Assembly: GCA_977017645.1 (NCBI GenBank)
Contig: OZ360236.1
Span: forward strand, 26,846,001 to 26,910,000
DNA: 64,000 nucleotides
Direction of reading: 5' to 3'
DNA from: Torpedo marmorata
Lineage: Eukaryota
Shown here: positions 5,663 through 37,431 of the stretch, one piece after another
Layout: each line of letters begins with the position of its first letter
How positions within the stretch are numbered: position 1 is the stretch's first letter
Notes under the pieces: model-generated
The model's database searches: none
What the model saw: only the letters and a program-made list of their open reading frames with translations
Told to the model about the DNA's origin: nothing
Program-made: the position numbers and the translations under genes

Positions 5663-5926
5663 ATTGTAATCTTTCTCTGTCTATCATGTCCATTAGCGTT
5701 CCCCTCCTAAATTGCATCTTAATTATTCTCTCCTCAAATGAAATAAAAGAAAAAAATAGAAATAAAAATAAGAAAAACCCCTTTAGAAAAAACACAGATA
5801 ACTCAGTGTTACCCCCCTCCATTGTTCGAGCAGCAGCTTTCGCCGCTAAGGTGGTGATTGGTTCGGAAGAAGTACCAATATGTCCACCCCCCCCATTAGA
5901 TCAATATAAATCCATACAATATAGAT

Positions 5927-6712
5927 TCAATTAACTCCTCCCAAATCCAGTTCTCCTTGTTCTCCTTTGACTTGAACTAAAATATTTTCTTCTCTTGACG
6001 CAGCCATCGGTAGCACCACTTGAGCTTGTTGATTTTCTTGATTTTGGTCTTGCTGCTGTGTAATCAAATTATAACTTCCAGGCAAACGAGGAAGATTTCG
6101 CGCATGAAAGAGTGCTTGCTGGGGATCCATAAATTGAATAAATTTATCTCCATCATTTTGAATTCTCAAAGCCGCAGGATATTTAAACGAAAACTTATAC
6201 CCTTTCTGCCATAATATTTGCTTCGCAGGATTAAACTCCTTCCGCTTATTAACCAAAGCTGGGCTTAGGTCTGGATAAAAAAACACTCTGTTGCCATCAA
6301 TCATCAACGGAGTCCCGCTTTCTCTTGACTTCTGAATCGCCATTCTTAATATTTTTTCTCTATCTTGATATCTGAGACATTTCATCAAAACTGGACGAGG
6401 TCTCCGATTTATCTGATCTCGTCTTCCAATTCTATGAGCTCTCTCCAACTCCACTGGTTATTCAAAAGCAAATATTTGCATAAGCCAATTCTGAAAAAAT
6501 TGAGTTGGATCTTGTGATTCCAAACCTTCAGGTAATCCCAATATCTTAACATTATTTCTTCGGCTTTGATTTTCCATCTGATCCATCTTTTGTAATATCT
6601 GATCTCTTTGTTTCTCCCAGCCAGTAAATGAATCATCCAATCTATCCACTCTTTCTCTATAGTCCACAAGTTCATCATAATTATTTTTAACATCATCTTC
6701 CATCTTCTGCAT
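5927..6712 (-). pseudogene. L1 ORF1 remnant (coiled coil plus RRM/CTD), split by an in-frame stop
   Basis: SRRNNVKILGLPEG and ERAHRIG...PRP motifs; homologous to 39042-39707. Confidence 0.9.
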
Positions 6713-7565
6713 CTTTTCAGGAGCTCTTAATCCTTCGTTGTGGAGATTAGTACAGCCCTTATCACCTTGAGTGCATCCAGGAACTCATTGGGAACCAGTA
6801 CAATAATAATCCTGTGATGTGAAATTAACTTTAGGCTTTTACACACCAAAAAACACTTTGAAAATATTAATATTTTTTACATGCAATTTTGAGTTTTAAT
6901 TGTATAACAAGGCATGGTTACTGCTCAACAAACAATCTGGCAATAAAACAAAACCATTCAACTATCTGTCAACAATCTTTTCCATGGGTTTGTTATCATT
7001 TAAAAGAGTCATCCACAGTGAAGCCTCATTGGCCAATATTAACTGGTCTATTGATTGATCCTTAAGCTTCCCTAATAGCAGGCAAAGATACTGAGCTGTT
7101 GTTTCAGTGAGGGAAGGGCCAAAGAGAGTGTCAGGTACTTAATCCATGAATGAGACAGTTTTTCCAACAGATTTGAAAATGTTCTTAACTGTAGTTCAAA
7201 AATGACAATAATTGTTTTTGAACTCATATTATGATGTTGAGTTTGGTATGACAAGGTGGTATGATGTAACTCGGTTTGAAATGACACAACAAAAATAAAA
7301 CAGATTCTTTATAGTGATTCTTTATTTATAGTGTATGAGTTTTGAATCTCTATTCGCGACATTGCAGGATTCTATTGTCAAATATTTTGACACAATTAAT
7401 AAGATGTTACAAGACTCACACCAGGGATTTAAATGATAAGTTCAGTGCAAGATGTGATGAATAGGGTACAACCATTATAGATAGATTAACAGGTACTAAA
7501 TGGTGAGGATTTGGGCCAACATAAAATGTTAAAATATGAAGGTTTTTATTCTCGTTCTGTTGCAG

Positions 7566-10833: not shown

Positions 10834-11040
10834 TATTTCTACCTTTGCTACTTAAAAAACACTGTTTGACCTGCTAAGGTTCTCCAGCATTTGTGTTTTT
10901 TGCATCAACCACAGTGTCTACAGATTTTCGTGATTTATCCACGAGGTGAAATGGAGTTCTGGAAGGATGATAATAGGAATTGTGGAGCAGGATTCTGTTG
11001 GCCAGTAGGATCTGTATCAGAATGTGAGTCTTAAAGTAGT

Positions 11041-11562
11041 TATAGTGACTTCAATCCAACAAATAATCACTTGGAGGCTCGGTGAGATATCTGTTCTTGA
11101 CGCATTTAAATTAATTTACTACCAAGTCCAATAGGTTCAAAAAACTCTATTTACACACGCTGACTTGAAGCAATCTTCAATGACTTAAATATCTTCTTTA
11201 ACGAAATATAAACAATTCTTGATAACGATGTTTAATAATGATTCCTTAAAACGTCTTTAAACTTCCTTTAAAATGATTCTTTATAAATTACTTTAAATGT
11301 TCAATGAAAGCTATGGCGATCTCACTCACCCTCCTCTAGGTCGCCATATTCTTATATACTTCTTCTCTGATTAACGCGCATGCTCCACCACGCATACTCC
11401 AGCCACTTCCCCACTGCGCATGCGGCAGTTGGCACTCCTGCGTATGCGCAGAGTACTCAATAGGCCTAGCACGGCCTACTAATCTCCGTAACTTCTCCGA
11501 AACCCGCTGGATACATCGGAATGCCGCGATGAACGTAAGTAACCAAGCCTATGGCTCTTACA
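11041..11562 (-). repeat. BEL copy A 3' LTR
   Basis: Direct repeat of 15982-16524; preceded on the minus strand by the PPT-like tgggccgg. Confidence 0.92.
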
Positions 11563-12127
11563 CCGGCCCATAATTATTATAACGAGACGCAATGTCTTAA
11601 ATAATAATTACACAATCAATTACAAATAACAATAACCATATAACATTCAAACAATATACAAATCTTCTTTCTTCACAAGACCAGTTTAAAAGTCTGTAAC
11701 CTGTGCAGTATACAACAACAAAATAAAGTCACTTTGTATTTATCTAAGTTCTTTTATCTCCAGAATCTTTGAGTTAAAACGCCGACCAGTAAACCTCAAA
11801 TCTTCCTCAGTCAAATAGGTAGTTTTTTCTTTTGAATTTAACTCAAGGCACCTCTTCAGTATTTCGTTTCACTTTATTCCTTTCTTCAGCATTCCACTTC
11901 TCATCTGAAGAATTTAAACTCTTAGAACTAGAATTTCAATATTTATCTGATCCTCTCGATTTTAATAAAGGAGTCTCTTTCACCACTCTGGTTTCTATTG
12001 CCTTTTCCTGCAATTCCAAATCCAATTTTGCAACTTTCAATTCAATCTCAGTTCCTTCCGAGAAATTAATAACTTGATCTGAAGTGAAAATATCATGTGA
12101 TACATTGGTGCTTCTATTGTCAACTCT

Positions 12128-12430
12128 GCTGTGGTAAACTTAAAATTTTTGAATTTCTTCATCTTGCTTGTTACATTGCTGCAATGCAATATCACTTTCT
12201 TTCTGCATTGTTAATAGCTGAACCTTCAATTTACATTCTTGATTGTTTTATATAATCAACTGTTTTGTGTTATTAACCAATAACTTGATCTCTTTCAATA
12301 ATTAATCTCTTCCTCCATCCTTTTACATTTTGATAATGCTGAATCTCTTTCCTCGATAACTATTTATTTCTTCAGCAGTTATTCTTTTCTTCTGCTTTCT
12401 GACTGCGAATTTTATTTACAATTAAAATCT
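12128..12430 (-). pseudogene. MIPOL1: Degenerate MIPOL1-like coiled-coil coding segment inside BEL copy A
   Basis: Manual translation across frameshifts: KRITAEEIN / VIEERDSALSKCKRMEEEI / LKEIKLLVNNTKQLII*NNQECKLKVQLLTMQKESDIALQQCNKQDEEIQKF*VYHS. Parallels my recollection of MIPOL1 (RITAEEMSALIEERDAALSKCKRLEQEL...ENNQERALKAKLLSMQQARETAVQQYKKLEEEIQTLRVYYS). Not database-verified. Confidence 0.75.
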
Positions 12431-12848
12431 TTCTGTTTAATGTTTTCATGATTATCCAATATTTCCAATTCCTCTTTCAACATTTTGTTCTCTGAATTCA
12501 ATTGCATTAAATTATCATTCACATTCTTTTTTATTCAATCAGCACAATTTTCTGTGTTCTCCAGTTTTACATTACATTGCAGCATTTCTTTATTGACTTT
12601 GTCTGCTGTAAACTCCGAACTAAAAAAATCTACTTTCAAATTTGTTCTCAGTCACTTGTTTTATTCCTGTATCTGATTCAATTATACAGGAATAATCACT
12701 AGTATTATTTGCAACATCTTCTATTACTTCATTTTTATCCATTTCTACTGAAAATAATTCCTTCAATGTTGTTTTAAATACCTTTGATTTATTCTCACAT
12801 TGATTTGTTTTCTTTTCTTCAAAAGTGATTTTCTTATTCACAGTCTTT

Positions 12849-15525
12849 TGCTCTTCCCTTAACTCATCAACTTTCACAACCGAAATCCTGTTAATATTTA
12901 TCGCTAACTGTTCTTGTGCAATATCATTATTTCTTTGCAATGGTCCATTGATTGTCCAACCAAGCTTGGTTCTAACAACGTAAGGTCCATTTCCTCAACT
13001 CCGTATTATTTCTAGTGGTTCCAAAACCTTTGGCACATCTGAACCAATCAGCATTTCTATCTCAGAGTTAACTTCAGGTAAATAAACCTTCCACAGATAA
13101 GACAAATGATGGAAATAATTTTGATGTGGAATCTTTCCTTCGTGCACAGGCATAGTCTTCTGAGTATATAAACTTGGAAGATCACAAAATTTTTTGTCAT
13201 CCAATCCTGCAACCCTTAAGCCTGAAACAATGCTGGTTTCAGCGACCTTTTCTTGTCCCATGGTTTTCAACATAATTCTTGACCTTCTTCCTTGAATATT
13301 AAGTTTGTTTATTAGTCCTTCTGTGCAAAAAGATGCAGTGCTGCCTGGGTCGAGAAATGCATATGTATGTACTGTTACATCCCCTTTCTTGGTCTTGACT
13401 TGTACAGGCACTATTGAAAGTTTGCAGTTATCCACACCAGCCCCGGTAAGATCTCTTGCTGAACCGAGGTTATAACATTGTTTTCTGATGTTTCTGTTTG
13501 CTCCTTTTCCAATTCCTTCTTTCTTTGATGGATATGCAACATTCTAGGATGTTTCAAATTGCATATGTTACAGTTATGTCACTTCTTGCAGTTTTTACTG
13601 ATGTGCCCTTTACACAGACAGCTAAAACATACTCCATTTTCCTTTAAGAAAGCGATCTTCTCATTATTTTCCTTCTTTTCCAACCGTAAACACATTTCCA
13701 AAGCATGTCCACCTTTACAGAACAAACAACTCTTCTCATTAGTCAAACTTTCCTTTTCCTTATTTACTTTATCTTTTTCTTTATTTATAACTGAAACATT
13801 AGTAGCAAAAGTACTCCTTTTCAATTTCGGACTAGGCTGTGAGTTAGACCTCCTTACTTCTTTGTTCCCCATTGAATTGTCTCTGGTATTTCCATATATT
13901 GGATCTGTTTCAATGTACACCTGTTGTTCAAGAAAATTTATCAAGTCATTTAAGGTAGCTCTTTGACCGTAATTTTCTTCTAAGTCACAAGCCAAATTTC
14001 TCCATCTATCCCATAAGTTGTAAGGTAATTTATCTAAGATGATTCACATATTACCAGGCACGTCAAGCTCACGAATATTATCGATATCTTCCATGGCATT
14101 ACAACATCCTCTTAAAAAGAGAGTATATGCTTGTAGAGCCTTTACATTATTCTGTTTTATTGATGTCCATTTAAGAGATTTATCCATATAAGCTAAAGCA
14201 ATTCGATGCTTGTTGCCAAAATGTTGTTCTTGTAAAGACTTAGCTCTGTCTAATCCTCTGAGGACATATGTTGACAACTCTTTACAAGTTCTCTTGGCTG
14301 TCCCTTTGTGAACATTTCCAAATAATAAAGACATTCATCAGAGTCTTGGCATTTATTTTCAATATTGCGTCTAAAAGACTCCATGAACACTTGGTACTGA
14401 AGTGGATCACCATCAAAAGTTTGAATCTCTTTCTTGGGTAAAGAAGAGAGAGACTGTAACTGAATCAATGATGCAGCAATTTCATTTTGTCTTCCTATGG
14501 ATGACAATACATTGCTCTGTTCACCGCCTCTTGTTACAGGTAATGTATCTGGAAACCTCACTGGTGTAGTTTCTTCCATATTTCTGATGTTTGACTCAAA
14601 TAACAAGGAAGCTGCATCGTTTGACAGCACCAAAGCCGCAGCTTTGTCTTCGGATGTTACCACTGGTACATGTGACTCGATAACACCATGCTCTTGAAGG
14701 ATTTGTCCTTGTATTTGCAAGTCTTGTATCCTTGGTACTAAAATATTTACCTTTTTGGTTGGTTTCTTTTCCTGTGGCTCCTTTTTAAAATATAACTTCT
14801 TATCATCGCACACTTTAGATAATTTACTCTGAGCACCAGATACCATTGAGCCTTTTGGTACCTTTTTTTTTGCCCTGGCAATAGTAATGTTTGCTTCCAG
14901 CTCCTGCTGCTCCTTTCTCTTGCCTTAGCTGCCGCTTTAGCTGCTCCTCCTTTTGCCTTAGCTGCTCCTCCTGTCCTTCTAAAATATGTTTATCTTTAAG
15001 CGTTTTTTGTTGCGCAAGAAGAGTGGTCAAGTCAACTTCACCCTTTGTACGTGACGATGCAGAACCTGAAGTACGAGAAACTCTGGAGCTCGAACCAGAA
15101 CTTTGTTTGCTTCTCCTGCTTTCAACATTTGAGACAATGTCACATGCTTATATTTCATCCTTCAGGTCAGATGTTGTCTTCTTACTTGCCTCCTTCACCA
15201 ATTCGAATTGTACATCCTTTACATCTTCATCCTCTTTGTTTTCTTCATCATTTGGTGATACATTTTCGGTCGTTTCCATGATACTGTCTTCATGTTCAGT
15301 CATTGTCTTTTGCAATGAGTTTGCAATGTCTTCATTCCCATCAATTGAAGCCGCCTGTTCTTCCTTTGCCAACTTCAGTCTTGCAAAGAGAACATTTTTA
15401 TTTCCACTTGTATCTAGTTTCAGTCACTTCAATTCTTCTTTGAGCTCCACAACCTTCACGTCTTCAATACATTGTTCCTCAATAGCAACATCAGCGGCTG
15501 CTGCGCCAGCTGCTGCTGCGGCCAT
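12849..15525 (-). pseudogene. BEL copy A gag-protease, frameshifted
   Basis: ORF fragments 15148-15372, 14250-14846, 14044-14334, 13579-13995 (CLFCKGGHALEMC, CFSCLCKGHISKNC), 12995-13435 (LDPGS). Confidence 0.9.
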
Positions 15526-15981: not shown

Positions 15982-16524
15982 TATAGTGACTTGGAGGCTA
16001 GGTGAGATACCCGTTCATGACGCATTTCAATTAATTTACTACCAAGTCCAATAGGTTCAAAAAACGTTATTTACACACGATGACTTGAAGCAATCTTCAA
16101 TGACTTAAATACCTTCTTTAATGAAATATAAACAATTCTTGATAACGATGTTTAATAACGATTCTTTAAGACGTCTTTAAACTTCCTTTAAAACGATTCT
16201 TTATAAATCACTTTAAATGTTCAATGAAAGCTATGGCGATCTCACTCACCCTCCTCTAGGTCACCATATTCTTATATACTTCTTCTCTGATTAATGCGCA
16301 TGCTCCACCGCGCATAATCCATCGCACATGCTCCACCGCGCATACTCCACCGCGCATACTCCACCCACTTCCACACTGCGCATGCGCCACTCGGCACTCC
16401 TGCGCATGCACAGAGTACTCAATAGGCTTAGCATGGCCTACTAATCTCCGTAACTCCTCCGAAACCCGCTGGATACATCGGAACGCCGCGATGAAGGTAA
16501 GTAACCAAGTCGCTGGCTCTTACA
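15982..16524 (-). repeat. BEL copy A 5' LTR
   Basis: Begins TGTAAGAGC on the minus strand and ends GTCACTATA. Has a ~21-bp deletion near its end and extra ccaccgcgcatact units relative to the 3' LTR. Confidence 0.92.
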
Positions 16525-18173
16525 TTAGTGATAAAAGTAGAGAAGCAAATAACATTCTATTGTATTTGTTGATAATTCAGCAATGCTAAAGCTGATTGTG
16601 AAGAACAACAGAAACTCCATATTTGGCAAAGACAGAAAGAGACTATTTACGAAAGTAAATCACGAATATCTGTAGACACCGTGCTTGAAGTAAAAAAACA
16701 CAAATGCTGGAGAAGCTTAGCAGGTCAAACAGTGTCTTTTATGTAGCAAAGGTAGAAATACATAACCGACATTTCGGGCCTGAGCCCTTCATCAAAGCAT
16801 GAGAAAATGCCGGCAGGCATCCGAACAAACGAGTGAGGGGGGGAAGGCGGGGGGTGGCAAAGGCAGGAGATGATAGGTGGAGAAAGGAGGGAGGGGACAG
16901 CAGCAAAGAGCGGGAGGAGGGATGGCTGGGAGGGTGGAAAAAACTGGAAGGACAGGTAAGGGGGGAGGGGAAGGAAAAGGCAAGCAGGTTTAGTAGAAAG
17001 CAGAAAAGTCAATGTTAATGCCATCTGGCTGGAGAGTGCCCAGATGGAAAATAAGATGTTGTTCCTCCAATTTGCTGGTGGTCTGGGTGTAATAGTACAT
17101 AAGGCCATGGGCAGACAGATGAGTGTGGGAGTGTGACTCGGAATTGAAACAGTTGGCTACTGGGAGGCCGCTGTTGTTGCGGACGGAGAGGAGGTGCTCA
17201 GCGAAGCGATCTCCCAATCTACGACCGGTCTCTCCGATGCAGAGAATGCCACAAAGGGAGCACCGGATGCAGTAAATAAGTTCTCTGAATGTACAAGTGA
17301 AGTGTTGCTTCACTTGAAAGGCCTGTTTGGGGCCCCGGACCGTGGTGAAGGAGGAGGTGTGGGTGCAAGTGTTGCACCTCCTGCGGACACAGAGGAAGGT
17401 GCCAGGGGTCCGATGGGTGGGGAGGGATGAGTGCACGAGGGAATCACGGAGGGAGCGGTCCCTGCGGAAGGCCGAGAGGGGAGGAGAATGAAAAATGTGT
17501 CTGGTGGAGTGATCCTGTAGTAAGTGCCGGAAATTCCGGCGGATAATGTGTTGGATGCGGAGGCTGGTGGGGTGGTAGGTGAGGATGAGGGGGGGTTCTA
17601 TGTTTGTTGCATCTGGGGGCAGAGGGGGCCAGGACAGATTAGCGGGAAATGGACAAGATGCGGGTGAGGGCTGAGTTGATGGTGGTGGAGGGGAAGCCAC
17701 GTTTGTGGAAGAAGGCAGACATTTCAGAAGATCTGGACTGGAAGATCTCATCTTGAAAACAGATGCGGTGGAGACGGAGAAATTGAGAGAAGGGGATGGA
17801 ATCCTTGCAGGGGACAGGGTATGAGCAGGTGTAGTCCAGATAGTTGTGGGAGTTGGAGGGTTTGTAGTATTGATGAGCCCATCAATAACTTCAAAAGACT
17901 AGAAGTTACACAAGAACTAAAAGGCTGGGGGAGGAACGGTGGCACAATGGCCTTTATTCAGGGGGTCTGTGGGAGGAGCCACCGGGACAGTCAGCTGAGG
18001 GCATGTCCAGACATATCACCCAGCCACAACCTATACATGGTGGTTTACCACATTCACCCCTCCTTTTTAAAAGCATCCAGCGGGGTGAAGGGTATAACAA
18101 TATTTACAAAGAATTAAAATTACAAATCGAGTAGATCAGGCGGTCGAGTCCGACGCTGTGATCGGCACAGTAC

Positions 18174-21100
18174 TTATGGTGATGGGGCACGTAGCGGTGC
18201 TGCCTCCTGCCTGATTTGGAGAACCAGCATGTCTGGCATTCGCGAAACCTCGGGTGAACATGCCGGTACGTTTGGTGTCATGTCTGAATTGGGTGGTGCC
18301 TCTTGTGTGTCCTTAATGGTAGGTACGGGGGTAACAGTAACTACGGAGTGTTCGAGGGCGGCGGCGGGTCCCAGTGCTCCTGCGGGCGCCAGGTCCCGGA
18401 TGGAGACCGTGTCTTCCCGCCCATCAGGAAAAACCACGTAGGAGTACTGGGGGTTCGCGTGTAATAATTGAACCCTCTCGACCATCGGGGCGTATTTATT
18501 GCTCCTGACATGTTTCCGGAGCAGCACTGGCCCTGAGGACGTCAGCCATGCTGGTAGGGTAGTCCCGGTGGTCTACTTTCTGGGGAAGGAAAAGAGTCTC
18601 TCATGAGGTGTAGCATTGGTGGATGTGCATAGCAGGGATCGGATGGAGTGGAGTGCCTCGGGAAGGACTTCTTGCCAGCGGGAGACTGGTAATCCCTTAG
18701 ACCTGAGGTCTAAGAGTGTGGTGTTCCAGACCGTGGCGTTCTCCCTCTCCACTTGTCCATTGCCCAGTGGTCCTGCTAGTCGCGATACCCCTGGCCAGCA
18801 GATATTGGCACTCGTCACTCATAAACGAGGACCGTCGGTCACTATGGATATAGCAGGGGTATCCAAACAATGTGAAGAGTTTGTGGAGGGATTTTATGAC
18901 TGAGGTGGCAGTGGTATCGGGGCAGGGAATGGCGAAAGGGAACCGCGAGTACTCATCAATGACGTTGAGGAAGTACACATTGCGGTCGGTGGAGGGAAGG
19001 GGGCCCTCAAAGTCGACGTTTAGTTGCTCAAATGGGCGGGTTGCTTTTATCAACTGTGCCTTGTCAGGATGGTAGAAGTGCGGTTTGCACTCTGCACAGA
19101 CTTGGCAGCTGCCGGTCATCGTCCTGACCTCTTCCAGGGAGTACGGCAGGTTACGGGCTTCACAAAGTGAAAAAGCCTGGTGACTCCGGGGTGGCAGAGG
19201 TCACAGTGGAGGGCATATAACCGGTCGATCTGTGCGCTAGCGCACGTCCCCCGGGATAGAGCTTCGGAGGGCTCATTGAGCTTCCCGGGCTGGTACATTA
19301 TATCATAGTTGTAGGTGGAGAGTTTGATTCTCCACCTCAGGATTTTATCATTTTTGATTTTACCCCGCTGCTGGTTGCTGAACATGAATGCGACTGAGCT
19401 TTGGTCAGTCAGCAGGGTAAACCTTTTGCTGGCGAGATAGTGCCTCCAGTGCCTGATAGCTTCCACTATGGCTTTGGCCTCTTTCTCCACCGCTGAGTGC
19501 CGAATTTCTGGACCTTGAAGGGTACGGGAGAAGAACGCCACAGGTCTTCCTGCCTGGTTGAGGGTAGCAGCCAGTGCGAAGTCGGACGCGTCACTCTCTA
19601 CTTGAAAGGGAGTGGACTCGTCCACTGCGTGCATTGCTGCTCTGGCAATGTCCCCTTTTATGAGGCTGAAAGCCTCAAGTGCCTCCTCTGCAAATGGAAA
19701 AGTGGTGGACTTGAATAGGGAGCGGGCCTTGTCCGCATAATTAGGGACCCATTGAGCATGGTAAGAAAAGAAGCTCAAGCACCTTTTGAGGGCTCTGAAG
19801 GTGTGGGGAAGCGGTAGTTCCAACAGGGGGCGCATGCGGTCGGGGTCGGGACCGATGACAACACACCCCAGCATTACGAGTCGGGTGGTTCCGAACACGC
19901 ACTTATCCTTGTTATAGGTGAGGTTAAGTGCTTTGGCCGCCTGGATGAACTTCCGAAGATTGTTATCGTGGTCCTGCCGGTCGTGACCGCAGATAGTGAT
20001 GTTATCTTGGTATGGAAAAGTGGCCTTTAATTTGCATTGGTCCACCATCCTGTCCATCTCCCTCTGGAAGACAGATACCCCATTTGTGACCCCAAAGGGG
20101 ACATGCAGGAAATGATAGAGTCTGCCGTCCGCCTTGAAGGCTGTATAGGGGCGGTCCTCCCGGTGAATGGGGAACTGGTGGTAGGCAGATTTGAGGTCTA
20201 TGGTGGAGAATAGCTTATATTGGGCTATCTGGTTCACCATATCTGTGATGCGTGGTAGAGGGTATGCGTCAAGCTGTGTAAACCTATTGACGGTCTGGCT
20301 ATAATCTACCACCATCCTGCTTTTCTCCCCGTTCTTGACTACCACCACCTGGGCCCTCCAGGGACTCGTGCTCACCTCGATGATCCCTTCCCCAAATAAT
20401 CACTGCACCTCTGACTTAATGAATGCCCTGTCCCCTGTGCTGTATCTCCTGCTTTTGGTTGCCACGGGTTTACAATCAGGGGTCAGATTGGCGAACAGTG
20501 TTGGGGGCGGGATCTTGAGTGTGGATAGACCGCAAGTAGTGTGGTGTGACAAAATATTTCTGCCGTTTTTAAGAAATTGGTGATTACCGACAGTAATTGG
20601 TGGGAGGGGCCCATCATACTCCATAGTCACACTTTGGAGGTGACTCTGGAAGTCAAGGCCCAGTAGTACAGGTGCACACAGTCGGGGCATGACCAATAGC
20701 GTGAAGTCCCGATATTCAGTGTCATGCACCACTAGCGTCGCTACACAACCACCCCGGATGTCTGTTGTTTGCGACTCGGAAGCCATGGCAACCCTCTGGC
20801 TTACTGGCTCTGTCTTGAGGCCACATAGCTGTACCGTGTCAGGGTGGATGAAGCTCTCTGTGCTGACTGTGTCAAACAGGCAGTTTGTTCTGTGTCCATC
20901 GACCAGGATGTCCATCATCGACCTCGCGAGTTTGTGGGGTGCACTCTGATCGAGTGTAACTGACGCCAATGTTGAGTCGCTGTCTTGATCCGATGCGATG
21001 GAGTGCCTGCTGTCCCGGGATGGCGGCACCCTGCGTCGGCGCGATGGCGTGGAACAAAATGACCGCTCCCATGACTCGCACGTGTTGGCCGCGGGTAAGT

Positions 21101-21991
21101 AAGATGGCGGGGACGGAAGTGACGACACGCAAGATGGCCACCCCCATAACTCGCACGTGTTGGCCGCGGGTAAGTAAGATGATGGCGACGGAAGTGATGA
21201 CACACAAGATGGCCGCCCCCAAGCCTAGCACGTGGCGGTGCTCGATCCCGCTCGCGGTTTAGATCTACAGACCTTAGCGAAACTGCCTTTCTTCCCGCAG
21301 CTGGAGCAGGTCGCTTCTCGGGCCGGGCAACATTTCCGGGTTGCTTTTCAAGTCCGCAGAAGTAGCATTTCTCGGACTCGCGGCTGACGGCTGCTGTAGT
21401 CGATTCACCGGCATGGTGTGGGGTCTACGGTATCCATGGAGCCCGCGGGAGATCACGCGCCTGTATAGCATCAGAGTTCTGTAGCGCGGCCTCAAGTGTA
21501 TCGGCCAGCTCGATCGCGGAACGGAAGGTGAGGTCAGCTTGTTCCAGCAGCAGCTGGTGCACATACACTGACCTGGTCCCCGTAACAAAAGCGTCTCTTA
21601 CTAAGAGGTCTGCGTGTTGTTCGGCCGTCAGTCCCTGGCAGTTGCAGGCCCGCACGAGTGTTTGTAGGGCCCGTACAAACTCTGCGCTCGACTCCCCGGG
21701 CCACTGCTGCCGCGTCGCTAGCCTGTGTCTCACATATACAGTATTAACAGGCCGTATATACTGCCTTTTAAGGGCATTCATAACGTGTTCATAAGTCTGC
21801 AGATCTCGGATTATGGAGTAGACTCGAGGGCTTACCCTAGAGAGGAGGACCTTGCATTTTGCAGCTTCTTCTTGTACTTTGATCTCCTCCAGGAACGACT
21901 CAAAACAGGTTAGCCAGAGTTCGAAAGCATTGCCAGCCTTTGGTGTTTGTGGATCGAGGTCCAGTTTGTCTGGTCTCAAGACATTCTCCAT
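18174..21991 (-). pseudogene. Gypsy gag-pol, multiply frameshifted
   Basis: ORF fragments 21425-21991 (gag), 20400-21203 (PR), 19116-20375 (RT/RH), 18697-19119, 18573-18818 and 18174-18527 (IN). Confidence 0.92.
21065..21220. repeat. 75-bp tandem duplication in the Gypsy gag-protease linker
   Basis: ctcgcacgtgttggccgcgggtaagtaagatg at about 21075 and 21150; translates as a 25-aa repeat. Confidence 0.9.
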
Positions 21992-23069
21992 GCTTACAAT
22001 TTTGCCAATAAAATTGATGAGCCCATCAATAACTTCAAAAGACTAGAAGTTACACAAGAACTGAAAGGCTTTTATTGGCAAAAGAATGGAGCTACATTCG
22101 TGCTGGTGATCTGTCCCGGACTGGGGGAGGAGCAGCGGCACAATGGCCTTTATTCAGGGGGTCTGTGGGAGGAGCCACCAGGACAGTCAGCAGAGGGCAT
22201 GTCCAGACATATCACCCAGCCCACAACCTATACATAGTGGTTTACCACAAGTATATGTCGAAAGCTTGTCTCCTGAGATGGAGACAGAGAGATCCAGAAA
22301 GGGGAGACTGTTATCGGAGATGGACCAGGTGAGTTTGAGATCGAGGTGGAAGTTGGACGCGAAGTGGATGAGGTTGACGAGCTCATCGCGGGTGGATGAG
22401 GCAGCCCCGATGTCGTCGTCGATATTTTTCCAGATAGTTGTGGTAAGGGACATGACCTGGTCTAACGAATCCCAAGAAACATCCGAAGAAACATGTACTT
22501 ATATGGAAAAGTCTGTTTGAATGTTCTGGAAAGCTGGAAGTTTGTCTGTAAAACTATGCAACTAGTGAGCATGATGGTGAGACTAGTTGCATGTGGCTGT
22601 GCCTCTTGCTGTAACAGAGTTCTCATGCTTCACAAAGCAATAATAAATTACGGTGAAATTTGTAACCGTATTTTGTTCGTTTGTCAAGTAATCTCAGGTC
22701 CACTTTCACATGTAGACCAAGTAAATATCTGAGGATTGGAGGCTATGAGCCTTGGCTTTTGGAAGGGTTGAGTAAAACCTGGAACAGGTAAAACAAGATG
22801 CAGGGGTTGACTTTAAAGTCAAATTTCCTGTCATCCAGTATAACTTCAATGTAATGGTAAATTGGGGAAGAGCTTTGAGAACAAGTAATTTTGGAACCAC
22901 TTTTTCTACCACAACCATAATTGACAATTGCTCTTTGTGGGTTTTTTATTTAACAGAAGCCAACAACAAAACTTTGGTCACTGGACTTTGAAGACAGTGG
23001 ACATAAAGCTAGTTGAGAAGAACACTAGACTTTGAAATTATTGTAAAATGGGGAGACAAGACCATATGG

Positions 23070-27438: not shown

Positions 27439-28046
27439 TATAGTGACTTCGATCCAACAATAGTCACTTGGAGGCTAGGTGAGATACTTGTTTTTGACGC
27501 GTTTCAATTAATTTACTAACAAAGCCCGATATGTTCAAAAAACTTTATTTGCACACGTGACTTGCAGCAATCTTCAATGACTTAAATATAAACAGTTCTT
27601 GATAACGATGTTTAATGAGTTCCTTTAAACGATTCCTTTGACTGTATTTAGATGTTCAATTAAATGACTTTAAACCATAATGAAACGAGTTTGAATGTTC
27701 AATGAAACGTGGCTAAATGTTCCATGAAACGGTCAATAAAAGATATGGCGATCTCACTCACCCTCCTCTAAGCCGCCATCTTTTTCCAATACTTTTTCCT
27801 GATTCGCGCATGCTCAATGCGCCTATTCCACCGCGCATACTCCACCGCGCATACTCCACCACGCACACTCCACTGCGCACACTGCCGCCAATTCCCAACT
27901 GCGCATGCGCCCGTCGGCACTCTAGCGCATGCGCAGAGTACTAAATAGTCCTAGCATGGCCTACAAACACCGCAACTCCTCCGTAACCTGCCGAGAACAT
28001 CGCAGCGCCGCGACCAAGGTAAGTAATCAAGCCTACGGCTCTTACA
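27439..28046 (-). repeat. BEL copy B 3' LTR
   Basis: Direct repeat of 36838-37431 with one extra 14-bp unit; adjacent PPT-like taggggccag. Confidence 0.93.
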
Positions 28047-28251
28047 CTGGCCCCTAATTATTATAATTAGACGCAATGTCTTAAATAATAATTACACAAT
28101 AAATTATAAATAACAATAACCATAACATTCAAACAATATACAAATCTTCTTTCTTCTTTCTTCATAAGACCAGAGTTTACCATAACTCTGAATCAACAAA
28201 AGTCTTTAACCTGTGAAGTATACAACAACAAATAAAGTCAGTTTGTATTTA

Positions 28252-31200
28252 TCAAAGTTCCTCCGTCTTCAACAGAAAGCAGACCTTGTTAATAGGTCTA
28301 TTTAGAAAGCCAGTCTTAGTTTTAATTGGCACTTGACGCACAAGTCCCCTTTTGTGCTGAATAGTCTCAATAATTTTTCCAAGTAACCAGGAGTTTCGAG
28401 GAGCTGAATCATCCATTATAATCACGATGTCTCCTGATGTAAAATTGCGTCTGAGGTTAAAACATTTTTTCCGTTCTTGCAGCTGAAGAAGATATACTTT
28501 TACCCATCTTTTCCAAAATAAATCTGACATATACTGTACTTGTCTCCACCTCCGACGAGCATATATGTCTTCCTTCTTAAATTGCCCTGGTGGCATTGAG
28601 AGATTAGTCTTAAAAAGCAAAAGATGGTTCGGGGTAAGTGCCTCAAGATCATTTGGATCTGTAGAAGCCTTAGTGATTGGACGACTGTTGAGAATAGCTT
28701 CAACTTCACATAAAACTGTGGAAAGACCCTCCTCGTCCAGACTTTGCACCTTTAAGGTGGAATTAAGTGCCCTTTGTACCGATCTAATTAATCTTTCCCA
28801 TACACCGCCATGGTGTGAACCAGTTGGTGGGTGGAATTTCCAATTGATTCCTTTCTGAAGTAATGTATTATGTATTTGATCTTGATTCCAACCTTCGATT
28901 GCCTCTTTCAACTCGAGCTGAGCTCCTACAAAATTAGTACCATTGTCAGATCGTATTTCTTTCACTTGACTATGTCTGGATATAAAACGCCGAAGAGCAT
29001 TGATAAAAGAGTCTGTGTCAAGAGACAAAGCCACTTCAATATGAATTGCTCTTATAGCTAAACAGGTGAAAATAACACCATAGCGCTTCACAATACTCCT
29101 TCCACGCTTCACTTCAAAAGGCCCAAAATAATCGACTCCAACATATGTGAAGGGAGGTTCATCGGGAGAGACTCTGTCCAGAGGCAAATCTGCCATCTGC
29201 TGTTGTCCAGGAGTAGGATTTAATCGCCGACAAACAACACATTTTGATACAATTTTTCTAATTAACACAGTGGCACCAAGAATCCAATAATTTTGTCGTA
29301 GTCTGGATAACGTATGATTGCGACCACCATGACCCACCTTTTCATGAATATGCCGAAGAATTAAATCAGAGATATAAAAATCCTTGGCCAGTATAACGGG
29401 ACGTTTCATCTCTTCTGGCATTGCTGCTCTGCTAAGTCGCCCACCAACCCTTAATACACCATTCTCCAAAATGGGATTAAGTATGCGAAGAACACTTGTC
29501 CTTTAAACATTCATTCCCCCTTTAAAACTCGAAATTTCGTCTGCAAATCTTTTCTTCCGGCAAAAGCGGATTATCTCCATCTCAGCATTAATTAATTCTT
29601 CAACTGTAAGACGTCTTCTTTTCTGCGTTTCAGTAACATTGTTTGTTCGTTTGTTACGATTCAAACACCATCTTTTAAATCTGAGCAACCATGCTATTGC
29701 CCTTTTCAAACTATTCCAGGATGAAAATCTATGTATTAAATAAGTAATACAATCCCTTTGTTCAGATATTATCTGCACTGCATTTGCAGTTTTAATCCCA
29801 TTTCTAGATTGATCGTAGGGTTCTTCTCCTTTGATTTCATGATCATCTAATAAAATTTCCATTAATTTATCAGGATTTTGGGGCCACTCATTTTGAGACC
29901 GTAAAAGAAACTGAGGCCCTGATACCCACATTTCATTCTTCTGAAAAGATTTGACTTTCAAACCTCGGGAAGCCAAATCAGCAGGATTATCAACTGCTTT
30001 AACATATCTCCACTGTTTTGGACATGAGACTTTATCGATTTCAACAATTCTGTTAGCCACAAAAGTTCAAAATCTTGTTGTCTTATTGTTGAGGTATTTA
30101 AGCACAGATGTGCTATCTGTCCAAAAGATAGAGTCTGCTAGATTCATCTGCAGCTCTTTTCTCAGTACTGTGTCCATTCTACTCGCCATGGCAGCAGCCG
30201 TCAACTCCATTCGAGGTATAGTAACTGGTTTTAATGGAGCCACTCTAGCCTTTCCCATTACAAATCCACAATGTATCTGAACATTATTACTATACAGTAA
30301 CAGATAACTAACAGTTCCATAACCTTCCTCACATGCATCAGCAAAATGATGAAGTTGAGCAAATGTCACCTTTCCAAAGTTGATGGGTTTGAAACATCTG
30401 TCAACCTTGAAGTTTTCTAACATATGAAGATCCTTATTCCAACATATCCATTTCTCTACAATGGAGTCTGGTATCTTATCATCCCAACCTATCTTTTTTC
30501 TACACAAATCTTGCAGGATCTTCTTGGCAGTTAGGACTACTGGTATCAATATTCCTAAGGGATCATAAATTGAACTGACCGTTGAAAGAATCCCTCTTCT
30601 TGTGAGAGGTCTGTCCTTCAAAATGATTTTGAATTTAAAAACGTCAGATTGAATACACCATTGTCTACCCAACATCCTCTCTACAGGAAGATTGTCATGG
30701 TCCAAATCCAGATTCTTCATTTCCTTTGCTCTATCTGCTTCAGGTATGACAGCCAACACACGACGACTGTTACTTATCCATTTGGTAAGTAGAAAGCCAC
30801 CCTTTAAACAAATTTTTCGTAACTCATAATAAAGAGATATTGCATTTTCTTCAGAAGTTGTAGAAGTAAGACAGTCATCTACATAAAAATTGTTCAAAAT
30901 GGTGCTTACAGCTTGAGAGCTAAACTCTTTCACATTATCCTCAGCACACTTCCTAAGGGCAAAGTTCGCACAAAGTTCGCTCCAAATAAATGCACAGTCA
31001 TTCTATATTCCACCATATTCTGTTTGTAGTCTCCATCAGGCCACCATAGGAACCGTAATAAGTCACGGTCTTCATTTGGAACTTTCACCTGATGAAACAT
31101 TGCTTCAATGTCAGCAGTATTTACAAAAGGTTCTTTACGGAATCTAACCAAGACTCCTATCAATGTACTAGTCAAGTCTGGCCCTTGTAACAACTGAGAA

Positions 31201-34200
31201 TTTAGTGACACTCCTCTAAAAGTCGCTCCACAGTCAAACACAACACAAAGTTTTTTTCTTTTGTGGATGTAAAACCCCATGATGTGGTAGATACCATTTT
31301 TTACCATCATTATGTCCCAATACATTATCTGGTATTTTCTCTGCATAACCTTTTGATATCATGTCAGACATAAAATTGTTATAGTCTGAATGAAAAGAAG
31401 AATCTCTATTAAATCTTCTTCTTAAATTCAGTGTACGATGTTCAGCAACACTTCTATTGTCAGACATGTATACTTCTCTTATCTTTACAGGTATTCCAAT
31501 ACAATAATGTCCATCAACTAACTCGGCAGATTTTGAGACAAAATTCAAAAACTGCCTAACTTCTTTTGAATGTTCTTGTTCATCACTGAGGCACTCAGGA
31601 AAGTCACTTTTGAACTGCTGCTCCCATAGCTCATCAAGTTTCATAACTGAAATTCTGTTAACATTTATCGCTAACTGTTCCTGAGTTTTATCACCTTTTC
31701 CTCCTAATGGTCCATTGATTGTCCAACCAAGCATGGTTTTAACAGCGTAAGGTCGATCTCCCACACTCCGTATTACATCTAGGGTTTCCAAAACCTTTGG
31801 CACATCTGAACCAATCAACATTTCTATTTCAAAATTAACTTCAGGTAGACAAACATTTTTCAGATAAGACCACCGTTTAATATCATTTTGATGAGGAATA
31901 TTTCCTTCATGCACAGGCATAGTCTTCTGAGTATATAAACTTGGAAGATCACAAAATTTTTTGTCCAATCCAGCAACCTTTAAGCCTGAAACAATGCTGG
32001 TTTCAACGACCTTTTCTTGTCCCATGGTTTTTAACATAATTCTTGATCTTCTTCCTTGAATATTAAGTTTATTCATTAGTCCTTCCGTGCAAAAAGATGC
32101 AATGCTGCCTGGGTCTAGAAATGCATATGTTTGTACTGTTGCATCCCCTTTCTTGGTCACGATCGAAAGTTTGCAGTTATCCACACCAGCCCCGGTAAGA
32201 CCACTTGTCTGAACCAAGGTTATAACATTGTTTTCTGTTGTTTCCTTTGTTTCTGTTTGCTCCTTTTCCAATTCCTTGTTTCTGTGATGGATATGCAAAA
32301 TTCTAGGAATTTCAAATTGCATATGTTACAATTAATTTGCTTCTTGCAGTTTTTACTGATGTGCCCTTTACACAGACAGCTAAAACATATTCCATTTTCC
32401 TTTAAGAAAGCGATCTTCTCATTATGTTCCTTCTTTTCCAATCGTAAACACATTTCCAAAGCATGTCCACCTTTACAGAACAAACAACTCTTTTCATCAG
32501 GCAAACTTTCCTTTTCCTTATTTACTTTGTCATTTTTCTTTATTTATAACTGACACATTAGTAGCAAAAGTACTCCTTTTCAATTTCGGACTAGGCTGTG
32601 AGTTAGACCTCCTTACATCTTTGCCTATTGAATTGTCTCTGGTATTTCCATATATTGGATCTGTTTCAATGTACACCTGTCGTTCAAGAAAATTTACCAA
32701 ATCCTTTAAGGTAGCTCTTCGACCGTAATTTCCTTGTAAATCACAAGCCAAATTTCTCCATCTATCCCATAACTTGTAAGGTATTTTTTCTAAGATGATT
32801 CGCATATTACCAGGCACTTCAAGCTCACGAATATTATCAATATCTTCCATGGCATTACAACATCCTCTTAAAAATAGAGTATATTCTTGTAGAGCCTTTA
32901 CATCATTTTGTTTTATTGATGTCCATTTAAGAGCTTTATCCATATAAGCTAAAGCAATTCGATGCTTGTTGCCAAAATGTTGTTCCAGTAAAGCCTTAGC
33001 TCTATCTAATCCTCTTTCTGAGGACATATGTTGACAACTCTTTACCAGTTCTTTTGGATGTCCCTTTGTGAACATTTCCAAATAATAAAGACATTCATCA
33101 CAATCATGGCATTTATTTTCAATATTGCGTTTGAAAGATCTGATAAATGATTGATACTGAAGTGGATCTCCATCAAAAATTTGTATCTCTTTCTTGGGTA
33201 AAGAAGAGAGAGACTGTAACTGAATCAATGATGCAGCGATTTCATTTTGTCTTTCCTTGGATGACAATACATTGTTCTGTTCACCGTCTCTTGTTGCAGG
33301 TAATGTATCTGGAAACCTCACTGGTGTAGTTTCTTCCATATTTCTGATGCTTGACTCAAATAACAAGGAAGCTGCATCGTTCGACCGAACCCAAGCTGCA
33401 GCTTTGTCTTCAGATGTTACCACTGGTACATGTGACTCGATACCAATATGCTCTTGAAATATTTGTCCTTGTATATGCAAGTCTTGTATCCTTGGTCTAA
33501 AATATCTACCCTTTTGGTTGGTTTCTTTTCCTGTGGCTCTTTTTTAAAATATGTTTTATTATCAGACACTTTAGATAATTTACTTCTAGCACCAGATACC
33601 ATTGAGCCTTCTATTGCTTTCTTTTTTGCCTTGGCAATAGTAATGTTTGCTTCCAGCTCCTGCTGTTCTTTTCTCTGCCTTAGCTGCTCGTGCATTTGTC
33701 ATAGCTGCTCCTCCTGTCGTTCTAAAATATGTTTATCCTAAAGCGTTTTTTGTTGTGCAATAAGAGCGGCCAAGTCACCTTCAATCTTTGTACGTGACGA
33801 TGCAGAACTTGAAGTACGAGAAACTCTGGAGCTCGAACCAGAACTTTGTTTGCTTGTCCTGCTTTCAGCATTTGAGACACTGTCAATTGCTTGTATTTCG
33901 TCCTGCACGTCATATGTTGTCTTCATACTTACCTCTTTCTCGAATTCGAATTGTATATCCTTTGCATCTTCATCCTCTTCATTTGGTGACACAATTTCAG
34001 CCATTTCCATGTAATCTTCTTGTTCATCTAACGAAGCTGCCCCTTCTTCCTTTGCCAGCTTCAATCTTGCGATGAGAACCTTTTTATTTCCATATATCTT
34101 TTTTCAGTCGCTTCAATTCTTCTTTAATATCCGCAACCTTCATGTCTTCAATATGTTGGTCTTTAACAGCAACATCAGCGGTTGCTGCGTCAGCTGCTGA

Positions 34201-34239
34201 TACATCAGTGGCTGCTGCATCAGAGGCTGCTGCGGCCAT
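28252..34239 (-). pseudogene. BEL copy B gag-pol polyprotein, frameshifted
   Basis: Serial ORF fragments from 34084-34326 down to 28252-29469 (integrase, 405 aa open). Confidence 0.93.
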
Positions 34240-34499
34240 TTTACTCGTCTTGTTCCACTGTCCTTCAAGCATACACAACACTAGCCAAATCAACAGTCCC
34301 CAATGGACCAGCGGCAGCAATTCCAATCTGTGTCCTTACTTGCCAAAGATACACAGAAGGAGTCCACAGACTTATATGACTACCACTTCAGATGACTGTA
34401 ATGTGCTGCTATTCACAAACGAGTTTCAACCACAACATCCGTCAATAATATCGCTGATTTTCCAAAAATGGTTTCTCCAACGTATTTATAGTACACTTT

Positions 34500-36624
34500 T
34501 TTTTTATTTAAAAAAAAATATTTTATTTAAAATTTTAAATCACAAAATACATTAAGTAAAATATGAAATTATGAAAATACTTGTGATACATTTTCACCCC
34601 CCCACCCTCCCTCCCCTCCCTAACCCTCCCATCCCTACTAATCTACTAAAGTAAAAATAAAAAAGAAACAAAAAGATAGAATAAGGAGAATGTCAATCTA
34701 AAAAACACATCTATAAACTAATTTTATTGTGGAGGTTCGCCAGTCAGATCCGATGTCCAGAGATCATCAAATCCTTAAACCAACAGCCTTCATATATGGG
34801 CTCCATATTTTCAAAAAGAAATGATATTTATTACGTAAATTATAGGTAATTTTTTCAAGTGGTATACATGAACGAAGTTCTGCATGCCATCTCTCTAACC
34901 CGAAATCTACATCAGATTTCCATGTAATAGCAATACATTTCTTAGAAACAGCTAAAGCAATTCGCAGAAATTCTATTTGATACATATTTAATTTCATCTT
35001 AATACTAACTCTTTATAAATATCTCCAAACAAAAATATCATAGGGTCCATTGGGAATGTAATTTTTAATACTTTATGTAAAAAATTTTAACTTTCAACCA
35101 AAAATCATAAACCTATGGACAAAACCATGTAGAATGTACAAAATAACCTTCCTCTCTATTACATCTAAAACATAAGCCTGATAATGTCGCGTTAAATTTC
35201 TTTAATTTTTTAGGCGTTAAATATAATTGATGAAAAAAATTATATTGAACTAATCTGTATCTAACATTAATAATCTTCGTCATACTTAGTTTACATAATT
35301 CTTTCCAATATTATTCATCTATTGTTACATTCAAATCTGATTCCCATTTTAATCTTGATTAATGAATTCCTCCTTTTGGGATTTTTCTCTGAAACAATCT
35401 ATACATTTGAGAAATAAATTTATTTACATCTCCATTAGTAACTAATAATTCTAATTCACTCTGTCTTGGTAAAGTCAATCTATAGCCTAACTTCCCAACT
35501 AAAAATGCTCTAATTTAATAATAAGCAAAAAGTGTATTATTCAATACATTAAACTTATCTTTCATTCTTTGAAAAGTAATAAATTTCCCAGCTTCAAAAC
35601 AATCATTTATTTTCTTAATTCCCTTTTGGAACCAAATTTTAAATCATTGATTGTCAACAGAAAATGGAATAAGTTTATTTTGATATAAAGGTATTTTTGG
35701 AGAAATCAACCCTTTCCCTCCTATCTCCCTATCCACTCTATTCCATATTTCTAACAAATGTTTAAAAATAGGAGAGTTCTACCCTCTTGTTAATAATAAT
35801 TTAGAATTCCATTTATAAATAACTTCTTCTTTCAAATCTTCTCCTATATTATTTAGTTCTATTCTAATCCAAGCAGAAGACTTAGTTAAATCAAACAATT
35901 CATTAACAAATTTTAATTGAGCTGCTTTATAATAATTTTGAAAATTAGGAAGTTGCAAACCACCCATTTCATATTTCCAAGTTAACTTCTCAATACCTAC
36001 TCTAGTCAACTTTCCTTTCCACAAAAACTTCCTAATAATTAAATTTAAATCTTTGAAAATTTTTTGAGGAATTTCATAAGGAATTGATTGAAAAATATAT
36101 TGAATTCTTGGAAAAACATTCAGTTTAATACAACTTACCCTTCCTATTAAAGTTATAGGTGAATCCTTCCAGCTTTCTAAATCTTTTTTAATTTTCATAA
36201 ATAATGGTAAATAATTTAATTTATATAGATTAGTTAATTTTGTATCAATCTTTATTCCCAAATATTTAATTCCTTCCTTTGACCATTTAAATTGTGTAAT
36301 TTCTTTGCATTTACTATAATCCCCTTGTGTTAATGCCATAATTTCACTTTTATCAGAATTAATCTTATAACCAGATATTTCCCCATATTCTCTCAATAAA
36401 ACAGTCAATTGTATTAAAGAAGTAATAGGTTTTGTCATATAAATCAATACATCATCTGCAAATAAACTAATTTTATGCTCTTCTCTTCCAACTTTAACAC
36501 CTGCAATCTTATTATCTTGTCTAATTAATTCTGCCAAAGGTTCTATTGCTAAAATAAACATTGCTGGCGACAAAGGACATCCTTGTCTAGTTGACCTAGT
36601 CAAAGAAAATTTTGAAGAAATTTG
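34500..36624 (-). mobile_element. 5'-truncated L1 inserted in the BEL B leader
   Basis: RT fragment 35779-36603; polyA (polyT on +) at 34500; 13-bp TSD tatagtac(a/t)cttt at 34487-34499 and 36625-36637; the empty site is visible in copy A at about 15771-15783. Confidence 0.95.
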
Positions 36625-36837
36625 TATAGTACTCTTTACTATAAGATTTGAAGCTTTAAATCCCTCTCTGGCTGTTACTCATGGCAGATGGATGTGGATT
36701 ACAAACTGCCCTCAACTCGAGGCATCTCCAAGATGGCCACCATTTTATTTTAAATATCAGTCCAAAGCACAGAGAGACTATTCTATCTTCTTTCCTTCAA
36801 TTTTCTGTTCCAAACAATCACTTTTATTGATTAATAA

Positions 36838-37431
36838 TATAGTGACTTCGATCCAACAATAGTCACTTGGAGGCTAGATGAGATACTTGTTTTTGACGCG
36901 TTTCAATTAATTTACTAACAAAGTCCGATATGTTCAAAAAACTTTATTTACACACGTGACTTGCAGCAATCTTCAATGACTTAAATATAAACAGTTCTTG
37001 ATAACGATGTTTAATGAGTTCCTTTAAACGATTCCTTTGACTGTATTTAGATGTTCAATTAAATGACTTTAAACCATAATGAAACGAGTTTGAATGTTCA
37101 ATGAAACGTGGCTAAATGTTCCATGAAACGGTCAATAAAAGATATGGCGATCTCACTCACCCTCCTCTAAGCCGCCATCTTTTTCCAATACTTTTTCCCG
37201 ATTCGCGCATGCTCAATGCGCCTATTCCACCGCGCATACTCCACTGCGCACACTCCACCGCGCACACTGCCGTCAATTCCCAACTGCGCATGCGCCCGTC
37301 GGCACTCTAGCACATGCGCAGAGTACTAAATAGGCCTAGCACGGCCTACAAACACCGCGACTCCTCCGTAACCCGCCGAGAACATCGCAGCACCGCGACT
37401 AAGGTAATTAATCAAGCCTACAGCTCTTACA
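36838..37431 (-). repeat. BEL copy B 5' LTR
   Basis: TGTAAGAGC...GTCACTATA on the minus strand. Confidence 0.93.

Follow-up and report, generated by a model that had tools for sequence, protein, structure and literature searches.

We describe a retrotransposon lying in a 64,000-nucleotide stretch of the Torpedo marmorata genome (assembly GCA_977017645.1, contig OZ360236.1, positions 26,846,001 to 26,910,000 of the forward strand), hereafter the window, whose coordinates are used throughout. The element, copy A, belongs to the BEL/Pao group of long terminal repeat (LTR) retrotransposons; most of its pol is gone, and in frame with gag and protease (PR) it now carries fragments, free of introns, of the host genes BRCA1, MIPOL1 and ELOA (Elongin A), and the unit carrying these fragments has spread to thousands of sites via integrase-type insertion. 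That an LTR element captured all three genes is virtually certain. The MIPOL1 exons stand in a permuted order, and their Eh-to-Eb join is the mark of a back-spliced (circular) RNA. The best explanation of the whole, to which we give a probability of roughly 0.72, is serial template switching in LTR particles followed by selection on the gag-PR frame, with the host pieces as passengers.

Structure of the element and origin of its cassette

Copy A, an inactive member of a non-autonomous BEL/Pao family, occupies 16524-11041 of the minus strand and carries stops and frameshifts. Its parts, together with copy B, a relative in the same window, are the following.

16525..16529, minus strand: target-site duplication (TSD), 5' copy, ACTAA, 5 bp
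15982..16524, minus strand: 5' LTR of copy A, starting TGTA and ending CTATA, Kimura two-parameter (K2P) distance 0.069 to the 3' LTR
13544..15525 (limits approximate), minus strand: gag, interrupted by stops and frameshifts, 86% to copy B, whose counterpart matches DUF1759
12853..13543, minus strand: gag end and aspartic protease (DPGS motif), as far as the junction; Asp_protease_2 at E 9e-4, under the curated cut-off
12417..12852, minus strand: BRCA1-derived piece, two host exons without intron, with an in-frame 24-bp deletion, 81-86% to the C61 exons
12129..12447, minus strand: MIPOL1 exons Ef (3' part), Eg and Eh, spliced, 83-88% to the C40 host exons
12128..12129, minus strand: back-splice junction, with host exon Eh complete to its last base and upstream exon Eb following from its first
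11978..12128, minus strand: MIPOL1 exons Eb (nt 1-74) and Ec (nt 18-97), joined via an in-frame 81-nt deletion
11765..11984, minus strand: ELOA-derived pieces, two host exons, 81% and 93% to the C41 host exons
11563..11764, minus strand: end of the fused frame (TAG 11746-11744), 3' UTR and polypurine-tract region
11041..11562, minus strand: 3' LTR of copy A
11036..11040, minus strand: TSD, 3' copy, ACTAC, one mismatch
27439..37431, minus strand: copy B, a broken pol-bearing BEL/Pao element, likely of the helper lineage, with Peptidase_A17, DUF5641, Integrase_H2C2 and DUF1759

A BLASTN comparison within the window aligns 15783-12849 of copy A with 34499-31616 of copy B at 86%, and homology resumes at 11751 (28260 in copy B). 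Between these points 3,356 bp of copy B, the region of reverse transcriptase (RT), RNase H (RH) and integrase (IN), stand replaced by 1,097 bp in copy A. A preliminary description, made by a model from the letters of the window, had reported homology through gag and protease to 12849, an exchange of about 3.4 kb of pol for about 1.1 kb, an in-frame 5' junction, and paired LTRs that identify the locus as an integration event. All of this holds: an open frame at 12994-12620 (124 aa, stop to stop) runs through the 5' cassette junction, and the ACTAA/ACTAC flanks accompany the LTR pair. Its quoted peptides can be found in the sequence, spread over two frames that contain stops and frameshifts. Copy B is assigned to BEL/Pao by its domains, namely DUF1759, Peptidase_A17 (PF05380; E 1.7e-47), DUF5641 and, last, integrase; no Pfam RT match was obtained in the broken copy B fragment scanned.

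One natural copy, L019, has a single stop-free frame of 727 codons covering the gag end, the protease and the whole cassette, and L027 and L030 are likewise open across the cassette. A Pfam scan of the window-type fusion returned no family for two proteins, and coiled-coil bias was therefore checked via sequence search. The L019 cassette protein drew 86 matches, among which MIPOL1 is the sole gene name (best E 3.3e-35) and the rest are hypothetical proteins with the same Pfam tags; the MIPOL1 similarity proposed earlier is real beyond coiled-coil bias. The 5' part of the cassette is BRCA1 (six of six matches, E 2e-70; 63% over 140 residues in the window type) and the 3' part Elongin A (PF06881, E 6.7e-16; PDB 8oev_M, E 6e-40). 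The closest protein matches of the cassette pieces are rays. Where a MIPOL1-like segment in unrelated sequence had been described, the MIPOL1 segment stands, but its exons are permuted and the remainder is host-derived too; where capture of a spliced host mRNA had been proposed, spliced host RNA stands, with exon-exon joins spanned, but a single gene and a linear MIPOL1 mRNA give way to three genes and a back-splice.

The host genes map to C40 (MIPOL1), C61 (BRCA1, located via a short downstream portion of the protein) and C41 (ELOA). Copies of a second, host-like type match the host exons at about 85-99% with the introns gone, and contain four exons of BRCA1, five of ELOA and five to seven of MIPOL1. 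The element retains 9 bp of BRCA1 that are absent from the present host allele and present in the Narcine protein, so that capture probably predates the host deletion. The public Narcine BRCA1 isoform (P0089 residues 1-185) itself opens with gypsy gag-like sequence, probably an annotation error. Matches to Pristis MIPOL1 that reach residues 244-340 in copies were rejected as coiled-coil extensions into BRCA1 sequence (loci checked). In L087 (6637-6660) and other host-like copies, nine ELOA bases are followed by a 29-bp deletion that restores the frame of ELOA itself, which looks like a compensating frameshift.

Permuted MIPOL1 exons

The host MIPOL1 gene has the order Ea-Eb-Ec-Ed-Ee-Ef-Eg-Eh-Ei, with canonical AG/GT ends at Ea to Eh and an AG start at Ei. 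In copy A the exons run Ef (3' part)-Eg-Eh-Eb, then Ec where retained, and 48 of 48 other copies show this order too; the final base of Eh meets the initial base of Eb exactly in every one (49/49). These 49 copies were selected by similarity, so that any copies that lost the junction fall outside the sample. The joined ends are both phase 2, and the junction is therefore in frame. In the host the junction exons lie 206 kb apart; the element copies mimic the junction.

Exons Eb to Eh total 780 nt. Exon Ei is single-copy (one match among 10 of 10 candidates scored), a limited search for Ea (77 scored) turned it up nowhere but at the host locus, and the Ed search returned only the host gene and one further locus, L132. 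This precursor type holds undeleted BRCA1, then Ef from nt 48 followed by Eg, Eh, Eb, Ec and Ed to nt 28 of Ee, with no ELOA; it thus retains about 725 of the 780 nt (about 93%) before it re-enters the integrase tail in frame, a content that fits the copying of a circle for just under one turn. L132 branches first in a host-rooted distance tree. Taken at the level of sequence, the MIPOL1 source was probably circular.

Four window-type copies (L066, L067, L075 and L082; G000:C40:64340113-64495804) sit within the parent MIPOL1 gene, in its introns, and three of these share its orientation. At the genome average about 0.3-0.4 would be expected in 318 kb; with a scaled rate the Poisson P is about 6e-4, although the true density is uncertain. 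L095 contains at 5851-6960 a very recent tandem repeat, 100% identical with a 405-bp period, of part of the MIPOL1 cassette, and a second near-identical cassette about 5.4 kb upstream. In L093 (6500-6603) a shortened subfamily form stops within exon Eb and passes straight into the 3' UTR without ELOA.

A multi-copy family and a probable change of helper lineage

A search of the 6.2-Gb genome of the same species with the insert gave 5,864 first-look candidates, of which the best 40 are the window itself and 39 copies at 91-94%. A 17-nt pattern over the MIPOL1 junction has 5,181 exact matches in the genome and none for the reversed control; it is exact in only 35 of the 49 known copies, so that 5,181 is a floor, unless the assembly contains duplicated haplotypes. 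First-look candidates number 2,791 for a 401-bp pol probe and 3,217 for a 361-bp cassette probe. Cassette elements lack RT, RH and IN, yet are multi-copy with independent insertions: among ten elements, the 5-bp TSDs are perfect in four, have one mismatch in four and are without clear assignment in two, and all differ among elements. The non-autonomous, multi-copy family with an in-frame Gag-PR fusion that the preliminary description foresaw, its copies sharing the junction at different TSDs, is thereby borne out. LTRs of the elements checked start TGT and end CA or TA; many window-type LTRs end TA, not CA.

Contigs with at least 31 letters on each side of the junction occur in three of four sequencing runs, labelled as three organisms, one of which may be the window's own species; the family therefore probably predates some speciation. 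The window subfamily is the commonest among the junction matches listed. Labelling subfamilies as old or young was abandoned, the LTR distances being close: 0.055-0.072 for the window type (six pairs), and 0.077 and 0.079, plus a mis-bounded 0.131, for the host-like or intermediate copies.

The gag-PR region lies at a synonymous distance (dS) from copy B of 0.16 in the window type versus 0.54 in the host-like type, and the 3' tail of the window type is B-like at about 94%. The window type thus combines B-like gag-PR and 3' tail with the same back-splice and genes, and the cassette has therefore changed helper lineage at least once.

Selection on the frame and on the cassette

Ratios of nonsynonymous to synonymous change (dN/dS) were obtained from Nei-Gojobori counts on natural copies, 34 window-type and 27 host-like, with L033 excluded as intermediate. 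For the cassette the net between-subfamily ratio is 0.73 (95% interval 0.48-1.16) versus 0.75-0.76 within families; by gene it is 0.86 for BRCA1, 0.73 for MIPOL1 and 0.49 (0.21-1.3) for ELOA, all with wide intervals. The 3' part of gag with the protease is under constraint, at 0.33 (0.24-0.45) versus 0.49-0.57 within families (9 and 8 copies). Window-type copies carry 1.2 stops each, and no stop is common to more than 5 of 34 copies; with about 109 substitutions fixed on the window-type stem, 3.9-4.8 fixed stops would be expected (P 0.008-0.02). The non-splice joins keep frame in seven of seven cases (chance 4.6e-4 if independent), versus 2 of 21 private indels. Four frameshifting indels common to 4-6 of 28 copies may be recurrent A-run slips or minor sub-branches. 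The cassette evolves neutrally as protein, and its frame is kept open all the same. A functional MIPOL1-like moiety, as implied by the preliminary description, is unsupported because dN/dS lies at the neutral baseline. The fused frame does not always terminate at the natural pol stop, as had been considered: it does so in the precursor and in L094, but other copies stop earlier or enter the 3' UTR.

We lean towards passenger pieces combined with selection for an open frame. More tentatively, the cassette may be advantageous, through RNA stability or escape from silencing by PIWI-interacting RNAs (piRNAs), such that selection would favour captured host frames, circles included, as fuel for the expansion of LTR elements in a vertebrate genome of very large size; this proposal embraces a host circular RNA copied in a BEL/Pao particle, a translated Gag-PR fusion, a cassette moved between helper lineages and a more than 5,000-fold multiplication.

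A rival reading, which we consider unlikely, holds that the captured pieces are themselves useful to the element, either because an accessory protein formed by the coiled coil of MIPOL1 or by the BC-box region of Elongin A might recruit a ubiquitin ligase, by analogy with HIV Vif, or because they might shield the RNA from piRNA silencing, in that silencing targeted at the cassette would also strike BRCA1, ELOA and MIPOL1. It would account for a frame kept open through many rearrangements, for a family about as abundant as the pol-bearing one by the first-look counts above, for the start of the Elongin_A domain kept in host-like copies, and for the net ratio of ELOA, the lowest of the three. 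The ELOA interval, however, takes in the neutral baseline; the window subfamily lost its part of the Elongin_A domain and shortened every piece; and its BRCA1 and MIPOL1 parts stand about 16-20% from the host, a divergence that erodes protein function and sequence camouflage alike.

Junction anatomy and proposed assembly

Microsimilarity, judged by eye, is present at the RT-BRCA1, BRCA1-MIPOL1, MIPOL1-IN, LTR-ELOA and ELOA-IN joins. The first junction of L132 lies in the RT region (copy B about 30719), at an imperfect stretch of about 10 nt common with BRCA1, and the BRCA1-to-MIPOL1 switch falls inside both exons at 2-4 common bases; in copy A the MIPOL1 alignment and the BRCA1 piece overlap at a microhomology. 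In host-like copies exon Ed ends after about 19 nt and is followed by a 17-nt linker, 16 positions of which agree with the LTR start of the element itself; ELOA comes next and rejoins the integrase tail via a 6-nt common word. This order of Ed stop, LTR linker and ELOA suggests a nested insertion and then a third capture. The cassette ends have no poly(A) tail and no separate TSD. Later subfamilies bear different microhomology deletions.

A three-step assembly would fit these joins. First, RT in the particle would have switched at short microhomologies from the integrase region to a co-packaged circular MIPOL1 RNA (Eb-Eh, 780 nt), copied just under one turn over the back-splice site, continued on BRCA1 mRNA and returned to the RT region. 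Second, a sister element would have integrated near the start of exon Ed, its trace being 17 nt of LTR end, and ELOA mRNA would have been captured through another switch. Third, the cassette would have been shortened by in-frame microhomology deletions, and recombination would have placed it on the gag-PR and 3' end of the copy B lineage, giving the window subfamily. RT and integrase would be supplied in trans by pol-bearing relatives, and the host pieces would be passengers, selection acting on Gag and PR made in cis and on an unbroken frame. The simplest mechanism would be that host coding sequence offers ready-made open filler for an uninterrupted frame: an early stop ahead of a long untranslated tail would probably destabilise the RNA through nonsense-mediated decay or hinder its packaging.

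Circular or linear source

The permuted MIPOL1 order could instead derive from a linear RNA with repeated exons, through trans-splicing or an ancestral tandem duplication of Eb-Eh, or from an RT jump within a linear mRNA, the rest of the assembly remaining the same. We regard such a source as unlikely. The captured stretch, at under one turn, bears no direct mark of rolling-circle copying, and non-colinear junctions have other possible routes (PMC4897178). Against this, the 318-kb gene interval holds a single instance of every host exon, element copies aside; the other capture junctions lie inside exons while the Eh-Eb one falls at two exon ends, for which we infer a chance of less than 1 in 1000 as a rough estimate; only circle-internal exons were found in the elements; and an exonic circ-Mipol1 is reported in mouse (PMC9888537).

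Several points count against the assembly favoured here, serial template switching from a circular MIPOL1 RNA and linear partners under frame selection. A microhomology of 3 nt (AG|C) at the back-splice site could have served a template jump, and the introns flanking the circle show no excess of inverted repeats, with 5 inverted matches (3,350 bp) versus up to 26 (16,304 bp) in other intron pairs. The precursor is known from one locus, which is 5'-truncated. The BRCA1 and ELOA pieces are colinear, so that linear mRNAs were also captured. As for selection, the dN/dS intervals on the single captured genes are wide, the within-family baseline of the gag-3'/PR part is itself low, and the 5' part of gag is without clear constraint (net 0.64, 0.45-0.92, versus 0.66-0.72). 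Similarity guided the choice of copies, and for the host-like ones this was a protein search, a route biased towards open frames; the rationale from nonsense-mediated decay and packaging comes from general knowledge.

A processed pseudogene or chimeric retrocopy placed by a long interspersed nuclear element (LINE) into a resident element, or an assembly artefact, has a negligible probability and is refuted for the window copy, since, LINE-rich as the window is, the cassette ends without poly(A) or a TSD of its own, pol is deleted rather than interrupted, thousands of copies share the junction at differing flanking TSDs (which also disposes of the single-copy processed pseudogene that the preliminary description had named as its refuting case), and contigs from independent runs cross the junction.

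Other features of the window

No primer-binding site of TGG type was seen after the 5' LTR (window 15981-15960, and other copies). The internal region begins with a TTAGTCAA-like motif in the copies inspected; no tRNA genes were found within the window. A LINE-like insertion breaks the 5' region of copy B (about 34500-36625). Of 594 sites in the LTRs of copy B only 16 differ between the two, which makes copy B younger than copy A. An LTR element at 18118-22042 on the minus strand is GC-rich and gypsy-like, with frames resembling gag, protease, RT (RVT_1, E 6e-24), RNase H and integrase, and the window is rich in LINEs.

Comparison with known systems

Read at the level of sequence, the family would be a fossil record, in one cartilaginous fish, of a germline circular RNA. 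Its thousands of copies are a test bed for why defective LTR elements retain long open frames; as thousands of BRCA1, ELOA and MIPOL1 fragments they could be a source of small RNAs that target essential genes, and in such genomes they will mislead both gene annotation and the calling of circular RNAs (circRNAs). Acutely transforming retroviruses with gag-onc fusions are similarly replication-defective and helper-dependent, with host exons in place of pol. In those viruses the captured protein is selected for its activity, unlike the captured protein here, which lies at the neutral baseline.

By sequence, the family appears to work like both LTR-mediated retrocopies and circRNA-derived pseudogenes. 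LTR-mediated retrocopies (Tan et al. 2016, PMC5131818) are partial spliced host RNAs within a discontinuous LTR element, with microsimilarity at switch points, and include multi-gene chimeras, in-frame sense orientation and secondary retroposition. The ray family shares these features: intron-free host exons lie within a discontinuous LTR element, with microsimilarity at the joins and no poly(A) or TSD of their own. It differs in its more than 5,000 copies, several subfamilies, preserved intermediate and cassette transfer between helper lineages; the main text of that paper has 0 occurrences of circular RNA. The preliminary description knew of no BEL/Pao precedent, and this must be withdrawn, since the same source includes, in mosquito, a retrocopy carried by BEL18_AG and, in Drosophila, a chimera of two genes carried by the Pao element BATUMI. 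As presented there, maize Bs1 is an LTR element with exon pieces of three host genes in 1-5 copies, all sharing switch points as here; one Bs1 piece is out of frame, whereas in this vertebrate host three pieces are in frame with gag-PR and one is back-spliced (PMC5131818).

Mouse circRFWD2 pseudogenes number 33-42 copies near LTR sequence (MMERVK10C-int), and their mechanism was called 'mysterious' (Dong et al. 2016, PMC4897178). The ray family resembles them in its non-colinear exon junction, its multiple copies and its LTR association; as in circRNA-derived retrocopies, the junction coincides precisely, in 49 of 49 copies, with a splice donor and an acceptor upstream of it, and only circle-resident exons were found. 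It differs from the endogenous retrovirus setting given in the main text of PMC4897178 in that the element is BEL/Pao, the pol junctions are resolved, and an in-frame Gag-PR fusion and two further genes are involved, at a copy number more than 100-fold higher. How circRNAs come to be retrotransposed was left open by Dong et al. (PMC4897178); the family offers junction-level evidence, and an intermediate, for LTR template switching. A literature search found no description of the ray family, most subscription papers and Repbase being outside its reach. What is unusual is the union of several traits: a single Gag-PR frame that joins a back-spliced RNA to two more host genes, a copy number above 5,000, an intermediate that has survived, and transfer from one helper lineage to another.

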